NCBI RefSeq assembly: GCF_058153355.1
Contig: NZ_CM177019.1
Reading direction: 5' to 3' (one strand)
DNA length: 64,000 bases
The position numbers are program-made. Position 1 is the stretch's first letter; every line of letters starts with the position of its first letter. This document shows, piece after piece, positions 52,501 through 55,500 of this stretch.

Positions 52501-55500
52501 GATCTTTCTGCTGTCTACGTACCCGGCATTGAAGATGAGGCATTCCGGGATTTGGCCCGGGCATGGGCATCTGCCCGCGATGATTTACGGCATGCAAGGC
52601 AACGTCTGAAATCGTTTCTTCTGGTTCATGGGGTCCATTATGTCGGGCGAGCAGATTGGGGCCCTGCACACCGACGCTGGCTCAGCAAATACTCATTCGA
52701 AAGTCCCTGGCGACAATTAGCTTTTGACGAACACCGTCGTACAATAGAAGACCGGCAGGCACAATGTGAACGGCTGGAATCCGCCCTGAAGGAGGCCGTT
52801 ACCGAATGGAGGCTGTATCCGGTAGTAGAGGCGCTGCAAGCCATGCGAGGGATTCAGTTTATTACTGCGGTTGGATTAATTTCTGAACTGGGTGATCTGA
52901 CCCGTTTTGAACATCCACGACAACTGATGTCATGGTTTGGTATCACGCCATCAGAATATTCATCGGGTGGAAGCAGACATCAGGGCAGCATTACCAAAGC
53001 CGGAAACAGCTATGCCAGAAAGCTATTGGTCGAGGCAGCGTGGAGTTACCGTCATCCGGCACGCATCAGTCCGGCAATACAAAAAAGGCAGGAAAATTTA
53101 CCCCGCCCCGTCATTGACAGAGCATGGGATGCTCAACTCAGGCTTTGTAAGAGGTATCGAAAACTTCAGGCCAAAGGAAAGAATGTCAATATTACAATTG
53201 TTGCTGTTGCACGTGAGCTGGCGGGTTTTATCTGGGATATGGGCCGAATAGCAATGTCTGTCGCACAACAACCACAATGTCACAAATAAAAAATGAGAAT
53301 AACCAGTTCCCTGAAGGCGACGTAGCCCGGTACAAGAGTAACCCACGTTAGCGCTTGGCGACGGCGGAACAAAGCTGATTCGCGACGTAAGAAAGTGGCA
53401 GGCTCATATGACGGACCTCTGTAATGCGGTATCCAACCCGCGAATATCAGCGTGATTCACCGTCGGATTTACTGCTACGTCGCCCTCAGGGAATTAAACC
53501 TAAAAAGAAAATCGTCAAAATTAGAGATTCCGGTTTGACACGGAAAGTCATATCAGCGCTGACATGTGACCCTAAGCCCTGATAATCATAGCTTAAGGTC
53601 AGGATTTCTGAGGGATTAATTAGGAAAAGTAATAATAAAATCGCACTGTGCTATAGCTGTTTATTCCAGAGATGCTTGTAAATATCTAATGTTGAGACAA
53701 CATTGGCAGGCGACATTCGGTTTAATGAGGGTAGAAAGGGATGAGCCTCCAGGAAGTTGATAAAACGAGTCGCGCTTGCCAACGTCGAATACCGCATTTC
53801 ATTTGCTTTCTTGTTTCCTGTAAGGTTACAAACAGCCATTGAATAATCACGGGCGGAAAATGCACGCCAGACATTATTTCTCACGCCACCACTCAAAAAT
53901 AACCGCGGCGGCGTATCATAATGAGTCGTTTTCTCGCCGCGTTCTTTCACAAAGGAAATATGGCACCGGCTTTGATGAATGTGCTGTAAGTTAGCCATCA
54001 GACAACCGCCTAATATAAAGCACTCGTGATCAAGGTAGTGTTGAATATTTATAGAATATGCTTCAGTCAGTGCTCTAACCAGTTCAAAATGGCGATATGC
54101 CGGAAGAACCGGTTTCACCAGCATCCCCGGATCGTTTTGATGTAATATCGCCCGACCATAATCAATATCAAATAAGGTATCACGCCGCATAGTAAGTAAC
54201 TCCTTGCGTTGTACGTGATGCGCCAGTGTACCTGGAGACAAACGCTCTTCATAACTTGATGCATATTGATAATGCGACTCTACCGCTGATGAAGAATAAT
54301 TTGTTGAAATAGCGACGACTCTACCGCTTTGTTCTTCTGCGGTAACAAGACTATAAAGATAGTTGTTACTACCGTTAAACTTTACGCGAAAAGCGCGGGT
54401 AGCGAGAGAAATATCAGAAGCAGAAGAGTACTGGCAACTTTCTTTATAGTTTACTTCCCGGGCTAGTTTCATCAACTCACGGTTAAGCCCTGTGCTATTA
54501 AGAAGTAATAATTTACGGATATCTGCAAGTGAAGCGCCTTGCTCAATCATCAATGCTAAATGTGTTCTTCGCGGCGTTGTATTTACATGATCCAGAATGA
54601 TAAAAGTTCTGGAACAATGATGACAATACATTCTCCTCTGCCCCTGAGCTGAATAGCCATACTTTTTCAGAGATGTGCTTCCGCAAGCTGAACATTGTGG
54701 AACCAACCTTCTCCATGAATGATTAACACGATTACGATAAATATTAAGAGATCGTTCAGATATCACAGGAAACAAGTAACCGCATTCCCGACATAAAATA
54801 TTTTTGCCTTGTGCAATATAATCCTGGCTATTCAACTGCCCCAGGTTTTTGCATCCTGGTGTTTTGCAACAATCAACATTTACGTTGGTAAACATATTCA
54901 CTCCCTGCGAATACCCGGATATTATCGTCATATGTCAAAGAAAAGAACCTGATTCAATGTGTAACATTGAATCAGGCGGGCATAGCCCTGAAAGGCATAC
55001 ATTACATTTATTATGGTTATCAGATTAGCCCCAGGTTACCGCTTCCGGTTTATCACCTCTGGCTTTCATTAATGAATCATTATCAATATCGGCTTTATAC
55101 TTTAAGAACTTACCATACATTTGTTTTTCAATGTCTGGATTTTTACCTATCTGATTAATGGTCTCAAAACGATCGGTTTTGAGGTTGTATAAGTACTTTG
55201 GCTTATTGTTACGATCGATGATCATTTTCCAGTCACCATCACGTATCGCCCATTCGTCGGTTGGATCATCCTGGAATGGCATGTCAATTCCGAAGATTAA
55301 TGGCTTTTCACGTTTTAGCGCCTTGTTCTCAAGGACAGGAACCAACGATTCGCCATCAAAAGTGCGGTCCGTCGGTAATTTGAAGTTCATCATTTTCGCC
55401 AGCGTAGGCATCCAGTCCAGACCATAAACGGGAGTATCTGAAACCATTCCCTTTGGAAGATGCTTTCCGTATTTAATAATCGCCGGAACACGGATGCCGC

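Follow-up and report, generated by a model that had tools for sequence, protein, structure and literature searches.

A probable domesticated IS1-like transposase and possible regulator in the sulfatase cassette beside nhaA of Escherichia coli

Gene X and the sulfatase island

We analyzed a 64-kb stretch of Escherichia coli DNA (64,000 nucleotides of contig NZ_CM177019.1, RefSeq assembly GCF_058153355.1; hereafter the window, to whose positions coordinates refer unless another locus is named) and, within it, a minus-strand gene at 53651-54895, called gene X here, whose product is very probably a domesticated IS1-like transposase. The open reading frame (ORF) given in the initial annotation is real, lies on the minus strand and encodes a protein of 414 amino acids (aa) that starts with MFTN..., and the RefSeq and homologue starts agree on it. 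The open frame extends to 53651-54931 (426 aa); however, we place the start of the gene at 54895, because every aligned homologue begins at MF.. there, as does the RefSeq annotation of near-identical E. coli genomes. RefSeq labels the product (a WP_001353477-like protein) 'IS1/IS1595 family N-terminal zinc-binding domain-containing protein'.

Gene X belongs to a 4-kb island (53637-57646), delimited by blastn against E. coli K-12 and by its junction sequences, that contains a channel gene, a sulfatase gene and X. The island replaces 81 bp of K-12 sequence between sokC and nhaA, in the interval of the E. coli chromosome that runs from dnaJ and hokC/sokC to nhaA and nhaR. Its first gene (56539-57300, minus strand) encodes a Tsx/OmpK-like outer-membrane channel, for which Pfam Channel_Tsx is matched in orthologous loci. 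The second (55025-56518), which directly precedes X and shares its strand, encodes a periplasmic sulfatase that is of the Ser type (SSPSR; LSSPSRAGLLTGR) and has a signal peptide. The 129-bp spacer between the sulfatase gene and X, where other genera have a gene for an anaerobic sulfatase maturase (anSME), contains a terminator-like hairpin on the minus strand with a 14-bp stem followed by TCTTTTCTTT (54947-54977). A perfect TTGACA (a -35 hexamer) directly follows this hairpin, and a scan found no good -10 element with it (54925-54946); in E. coli, X may have its own weak or activator-dependent promoter.

The DNA-binding head and the degenerate core

The N-terminal part of X contains two Cys4 clusters, CCKTPGC...CRECG and then CSACGSTSLKKYGYSAQGQRRMYCHHCSRTF, both exactly as first quoted. 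Zinc ribbon 1 (54767-54871, minus strand; residues 9-43) comprises C10, C15, C35 and C38 and is modelled as beta-hairpins, while zinc ribbon 2, which is of the InsA type (54599-54700, minus strand; residues 66-99), comprises C68, C71, C91 and C94. A predicted three-helix helix-turn-helix region follows (54437-54583, minus strand; residues ~105-153). All eight cysteines are kept in the close family of X in the homologue alignment, and those of ribbon 2 are kept across the wider family, with C91 and C94 invariant in 37/37 sequences. Ribbon 1 is missing from a few distant members (P0075, P0105 and P0116).

The likeness of ribbon 2 to IS1 InsA, proposed from the sequence alone, survives alignment. 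X scores 32.8 bits against NCBIfam NF050000, the IS1/IS1595 Zn domain (cutoff 28, E 7e-8), and an hhalign comparison of the 37-member family profile with IS1 InsAB' aligns X 64-144 with InsA 4-87 at 95% probability and E 3e-8. Since this match spans residues 64-144, the resemblance reaches beyond ribbon 2 and through the helix-turn-helix; another hhalign comparison with InsA recovers the ribbon alone. Pfam Zn_ribbon_InsA (PF03811) matches 6/37 family members at E<=0.001, and a PHROGs search with X returned a single weak match to a transposase zinc ribbon. The full IS1 transposase model NF033558 aligns with X over profile positions 1-84 only, at 26.8 bits against a cutoff of 100. For the related IS1595 family, Zn_ribbon_IS1595 (PF12760) reaches only E 0.79 with X, and DDE_Tnp_IS1595 has no match in X or its 37 relatives. 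Judging from these alignments, the head of X is descended from an IS1-type InsA DNA-binding module.

For the remaining ~260 aa (53654-54424, minus strand; residues ~158-414), sequence models are of no help: Pfam, PDB-sequence, PHROG and PADLOC searches yielded none over this part, and PDB sequence searches with the whole of X and with a profile of the core gave nothing useful. No DDE-family Pfam model, including DDE_Tnp_IS1 (PF03400), matches X or any of its 37 relatives. PADLOC likewise found no match for X or five of its relatives, which provides no link to defence. The AlphaFold2 model of X (predicted local distance difference test 79, predicted template modelling score 0.84) is more informative. 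Its order of strands and helices fits beta1-beta2-beta3-alpha-beta4-alpha-beta5(-alpha), the RNase H-like arrangement, and a Foldseek search of the PDB independently placed the ISCth4 transposase at the top (probability 0.99), ahead of Argonaute PIWI domains, themselves RNase H-like. As modelled, the C-terminal ~260 aa are an RNase H-like core of the DDE transposase/integrase superfamily. The initial description of X as having no recognizable catalytic domain is therefore right at the level of sequence and wrong at the level of fold.

This core appears to be degenerate. We examined residue conservation in a family alignment of 37 diverse sequences with identities down to 17-25%, and the only always-acidic column is E291, in agreement with the first reading that X has no DDE triad. 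E291 lies just after beta-4, at the spot expected for the second catalytic Asp, and is part of a conserved H290-E291 pair. On beta-1, where the first catalytic Asp would be expected, all aligned members have Thr or Ser (T166 in X), and the region where the third catalytic residue would fall has a W/R-x-N/D-x-W motif, at 339-343 of X. Other family-invariant residues are Y211, R238, P262, H269 and W343. The lack of a conserved acidic triad in the X family holds regardless of how individual residues are mapped to catalytic positions.

Copy number, cassette membership and relatives of X

We surveyed 5426 complete E. coli genomes with gene X alone and found it in 1171 (22%), in exactly one copy each and always on the chromosome; the match is full-length in 1164 of the 1171 carriers. 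Similarly, a scan of one genome per species revealed 18 X loci, a single one for each of 18 Enterobacteriaceae species. Several PLSDB 'plasmid' records also contain X or a paralogue (NZ_CP134663.1, NZ_CP141089.1, CP099174.1 and NZ_CP019203.1). These are 0.8-4.9 Mb in size or carry core chromosomal genes (metF, katG and metBL), and so look like mislabelled chromosomes or chromosomal fragments, which means that X is not a genuine plasmid gene. Inverted or direct repeats at the termini were sought between 53600-53650 and 54900-55020 and at the ends of the 4-kb island, and only short pairs at chance level were found, which is consistent with X not being a mobile element. Single-copy, chromosomal and syntenic as domestication predicts, X and its enterobacterial orthologues lend no support to the suggestion that the gene is the transposase of an unrecognized insertion sequence (IS) family.

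The ratio of nonsynonymous to synonymous substitution rates (dN/dS) of X is 0.06-0.13 between species, indicating that X is a constrained coding gene under purifying selection. Between Escherichia species the ratio is 0.10-0.13 at dS ~1. For the closest pair it is 0.30, a noisy value because dS for that pair is only 0.14. The corresponding values for the sulfatase gene and nhaA are 0.02-0.05, and the evolutionary rate of X is 3-5 times that of the neighbouring genes. E. coli has two classes of X allele, one with at least 95% identity (230 genomes) and one with ~81% identity (941 genomes), and none in between. This sharp split, against a far more uniform sulfatase, suggests allele replacement by recombination.

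The gene order of the cassette is Tsx-like channel, Ser-type sulfatase, anSME where present, X and, where present, arylsulfate sulfotransferase. In 18/18 species and in three metagenomic or other loci, X comes straight after the sulfatase or anSME gene, on the same strand, and the sulfatase is 78-98% identical across the 18 species. Most genera have the anSME gene, which ends 24-34 bp before X and encodes a bona fide maturase (TIGR03942, 534 bits), and an arylsulfate sulfotransferase gene often follows X. The maturase gene is lost and X kept in Escherichia, Klebsiella oxytoca and K. spallanzanii, Kluyvera intermedia and Phytobacter massiliensis, where sulfatase maturation must use an unlinked enzyme or the sulfatase is inactive. 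The cassette adjoins nhaA in Escherichia, Salmonella, Citrobacter, Klebsiella, Kosakonia and Phytobacter. It is found elsewhere, with its order kept and X 36-42% identical, in Scandinavium (between mglC and sanA), Buttiauxella, Franconibacter and one metagenome-assembled genome (near gapA/hrpA). The Salmonella genes presumably correspond to locus tags STM0035-STM0038. In Escherichia albertii, the channel gene (positions 5573-6330 of locus L011) is matched in two overlapping pieces, which suggests a frameshift, while the sulfatase gene and X are intact.

The sequences that precede the channel gene at nine loci were aligned, and two conserved elements emerged. A CRP-like site, TGTGA-N6-TCACA, lies at about -110 of the channel gene; in the window it is present in the degenerate form TGCGATCTTCATCACG (57412-57427, minus strand), ~110 bp upstream of the gene. 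About 50 bp further upstream is an asymmetric motif with the consensus AAAACAACAYNTTYTGACAC, of which the window has the copy AAAACAGACACATTTTCTGAAACAC with two indels (57459-57483, minus strand). In 456 kb of loci, strong matches to this motif occur only upstream of channel and sulfatase genes and are oriented with transcription. Each promoter has one copy; where the channel and sulfatase genes are divergent, as in Salmonella and Citrobacter, there are two, one facing each gene. The motif is a candidate operator for X; the cassette encodes no other DNA-binding protein. The window also contains an oppositely oriented match, GAAAACACCTTTTTTTGTGAATC (score 18.4), at 57621-57643, near the island boundary at about 57647, and it may be a relic of a Salmonella-like divergent promoter arrangement.

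Although it was first described as an orphan, X has many relatives. Enterobacterial homologues form 61 clusters at 90% identity, and a hidden Markov model search with the X core over 1.84 billion proteins found a wider, gammaproteobacterial family of only 77 representatives at 50% identity. Those that are full-length have the same double ribbon. Named members are from Proteus, Vibrio, Aliivibrio and Photobacterium. Further ones in AFDB, from Serratia, Enterovibrio, Atlantibacter and elsewhere, go by the name of 'IS1 family transposase' in some cases and 'cytoplasmic protein' in others. A homologue search with the broad family alignment found no further distant members. Remote structural relatives of 540-630 aa in AFDB (among them E8WS89, E8WJC5 and A0A4P7JPM3) are named 'C2H2-type domain-containing protein', 'Insertion element protein' or 'IS1 family transposase', and may be still-mobile ancestors of the family.

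The recurring partner of the distant relatives is a periplasmic Metallophos/5'-nucleotidase-C protein of ~518 aa that resembles UshA and SoxB. This gene and that of the family member are divergent, 127-170 bp apart, in Proteus, Vibrio and a metagenome-assembled genome; in Aliivibrio the two are co-directional. These partners are 48-54% identical to the enzyme encoded beside the Tsx-like gene in the sulfatase loci of Salmonella, Citrobacter and Klebsiella, except that the Aliivibrio enzyme is only ~32% identical to it. Some E. coli and Salmonella genomes have a second paralogue of X (~375 aa, 22-26% identical) between metF and metL, divergent from a 517-aa UshA-like gene (4315-7131 of locus L034, E. 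coli KE47; 4294-7110 of locus L033, Salmonella Infantis). The 132-135 bp spacer of this pair contains a perfect CRP-like site and the inverted repeat CAACGA-N11-TCGTTG; in general, the divergent spacers of UshA-like pairs have CRP-like sites and repeats of their own. Two other members are divergent from a gene for the nucleoside transporter NupC, and one of these is also near TauE and sulfonate-type ABC genes. Such an arrangement, with a small DNA-binding protein encoded divergently from a single target gene, is typical of dedicated regulators.

The Cys clusters had raised the idea that X might be a sulfatase maturase not of the radical-SAM type. We dismissed it because the cysteines belong to InsA-type ribbons, distant relatives have no sulfatase and most cassettes encode a bona fide anSME.

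As the initial annotation stated, X is flanked by an IS110-family element and the sulfatase gene. The element is ISSso6 (~52032-53566; transposase ORF 52114-53289, NF033542 274 bits), inserted downstream of X, between X and nhaA. Beside it, a 212-bp stretch comprising the nhaA promoter and the first 55 bp of the coding sequence is tandemly duplicated (51617-51828 and 51825-52036). The same ISSso6 insertion is present in 5 other E. coli genomes, in which the match is ~208 bp shorter, so the duplication seems to be missing there. On the other side, just beyond the 4-kb island as in K-12, lies the antitoxin RNA gene sokC of the hokC/mokC type I toxin-antitoxin system (57765-57917; Rfam RF01794, 120 bits).

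Origin and possible role of X

Comparison with IS1 itself shows how much of a transposase X has retained. Like InsAB' and InsA, X has a Cys4 ribbon and then a helix-turn-helix, in residue-by-residue correspondence (X 64-144, InsA 4-87), and like the IS1 transposase it has a DNA-binding head followed by an RNase H-like core. Unlike IS1, X has an extra N-terminal zinc ribbon, and its core is 260 aa rather than ~130 aa, with no profile similarity to InsB. It also has no DDE triad, frameshift architecture, inverted repeats or multiple copies, and it falls below the NF033558 cutoff. By model score, triad, inverted repeats and copy number, X belongs to neither the IS1 nor the IS1595 family. The catalytic domains of Tn5 (IS4) and ISCth4 (IS256/Mutator) are only 5-11% identical to X; X conserves no equivalents of their DDE residues and differs from them in N-terminal architecture.

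Given that X is single-copy, syntenic, under purifying selection and devoid of inverted repeats and an acidic triad, we consider it very likely that X is a whole IS1-like transposase that has been domesticated. The initial annotation had proposed a domesticated DNA-binding domain fused to a novel domain. Its domestication part stands, and its fusion part does not, since the C-terminal part appears to be the transposase's own degenerate core. In this, X resembles other exapted transposases: these too were co-opted whole, retain the DNA-binding module and have lost or changed catalytic residues, and their genes occur once per genome, keep their synteny and are subject to purifying selection. Transposase-derived host proteins include, in eukaryotes, FHY3/FAR1 (from Mutator), CENP-B (from pogo) and SETMAR and, in bacteria, RAYT (from IS200/IS605 TnpA) and TldR (from TnpB). 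The RAYTs, unlike X, are HUH enzymes that are still catalytic, and TldR, unlike X, is RNA-guided. We know of no described bacterial DDE-fold transposase that has become a dedicated operon component or regulator.

As to what the domesticated protein does, the chances that it acts as the transcription factor of its cassette seem to us about even, or a shade better. X has retained the DNA-binding head of the transposase, that is, two zinc ribbons, the second of the InsA type, and a helix-turn-helix. It has kept the RNase H-like core as well, though not the acidic catalytic triad, and very probably no longer moves. Acting as a one-component transcription factor, it would bind, through its head, to the asymmetric motif ~50 bp upstream of the CRP-like site in cassette promoters. 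The degenerate core, with Y211, R238, H269, E291 and W343, would serve for oligomerization, for sensing of a small molecule, or for both. The analysis shows where the head comes from, how the core is folded and that the triad is missing, and it shows the copy number, synteny and selection of X; binding to the motif, regulation of the cassette and any ligand of X are what we infer here. InsA provides a precedent for a head of this kind serving as a transcription factor, because InsA alone is a DNA-binding repressor that recognizes the ends of IS1. Those ends presumably contain CAAC-N3-CTGA, which resembles the CAAC-N5-CTGA of the cassette motif and is too short to count as evidence. The complete account, a domesticated IS1-like transposase that serves as regulator of the sulfatase cassette, is the one toward which we lean.

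Several observations weigh against this account. Searches of the literature for X, for the Salmonella genes, for the sulfatase together with nhaA and dnaJ, and for transposases domesticated from IS1 brought up neither an experiment nor other functional work on the protein. Regulators are more typically divergent than placed at the end of the operon that they control, and the cassette motif could serve another regulator that is not linked to it. E. coli has degenerate forms of both the motif and the CRP-like site, lacks the maturase gene and has a terminator-like hairpin between the sulfatase gene and X, so the system may be partly decayed in the window. The ancestry of the core is a further point. 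An hhalign comparison of the X core with IS1 InsB gave no match, leaving an IS1 origin of the core unproven; the search for InsB homologues returned near-identical IS1 copies only, too shallow a set for a profile. One Vibrio relative matches the IS1 profile at positions 1-130 of 199, and hence into the core, a weak hint that the core too may be of IS1 descent. Moreover, the placement of T166, E291 and N340/N341 at catalytic positions is suggested by the order of secondary-structure elements and a by-eye match to InsB, and the conserved His/Glu/Tyr/Arg set of the family could form an unrecognized active site.

That last point bears on whether X might instead be an accessory protein without a regulatory role, such as a cytoplasmic protein that assists sulfatase maturation or export as partner or chaperone, or an enzyme with a new site on an RNase H-like scaffold. 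X follows the maturase gene by 24-34 bp in the same operon, the invariant residues of its core include the non-acidic Y211, R238, P262, H269 and W343 as well as H290-E291, and its C-terminal domain is in no described sequence family, all of which would suit such a role. X is nevertheless kept where the local maturase is lost (Escherichia, Klebsiella oxytoca/spallanzanii, Kluyvera, Phytobacter massiliensis), its distant relatives have UshA-like or NupC genes as partners and no sulfatase or maturase nearby, and its most conserved module is the head that aligns with InsA. We therefore regard an accessory role as unlikely. Somewhat less likely again is that in E. coli alone X is a useless leftover of a decaying cassette that is still an open frame. 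The missing maturase gene, the degenerate CRP-like site and motif, the terminator between the sulfatase gene and X, the presence of X in just 22% of E. coli genomes, the dN/dS of 0.30 for the closest pair and an evolutionary rate 3-5 times that of the sulfatase could all be read as decay. However, 1164/1171 carriers have a full-length match, the copy of X in the window keeps all cysteines and family-invariant residues, and dN/dS is 0.10-0.13 between Escherichia species at dS ~1; the value of 0.30 is noisy, coming from a pair with a dS of only 0.14.

The degenerate core also bears on whether X is still active as a non-canonical transposase or recombinase, either of an unrecognized IS family or as an occasional mobilizer of the whole cassette. 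The cassette occupies at least three chromosomal sites (next to nhaA, between mglC and sanA, and near gapA/hrpA) and behaves as a present/absent island in E. coli; X has a transposase fold, and IS1595 relatives (ISfinder) are known to accept N or H at the third catalytic position. Yet there is one copy per genome, never on a plasmid, with no terminal inverted or direct repeats at the ends of the gene or the island, no conserved first Asp in the family, a position that is stable across at least six genera, and a score of 26.8 bits against NF033558 where the cutoff is 100. An active element is thus improbable, and we give it little weight.

The databases already list proteins of the X family, with names that are wrong or taken from a domain; the new points are the recognition of the dead core, of the fixed membership in a cassette and of the pairing with scavenging genes across the family, and the candidate operator. 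More tentatively, we suggest as possible rather than probable that the family consists of undescribed gammaproteobacterial one-component regulators that, together with CRP, control periplasmic scavenging modules. These modules would comprise Ser-type sulfatase with its maturase, UshA/SoxB-like phosphoesterases, and the nucleoside channels Tsx and NupC, and across the family, descended wholesale from an IS1-like DDE transposase, the InsA-like head would now recognize promoter motifs instead of transposon ends, the dead core having been turned into a sensor or oligomerization domain.

The co-option of whole DDE transposases into host regulation is textbook knowledge in eukaryotes and hardly documented in bacteria. 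If the account that we favour is true, X would offer a clean bacterial case that is amenable to experiment in E. coli, Salmonella and Klebsiella. The 'IS1 family transposase' labels on many members, which inflate IS counts, would be corrected. X would also provide a handle on an uncharacterized, catabolite-controlled sulfatase cassette at nhaA that is variable among pathogenic E. coli and Salmonella lineages, and a pointer to the link of this cassette with a UshA/SoxB-like enzyme and nucleoside channels.

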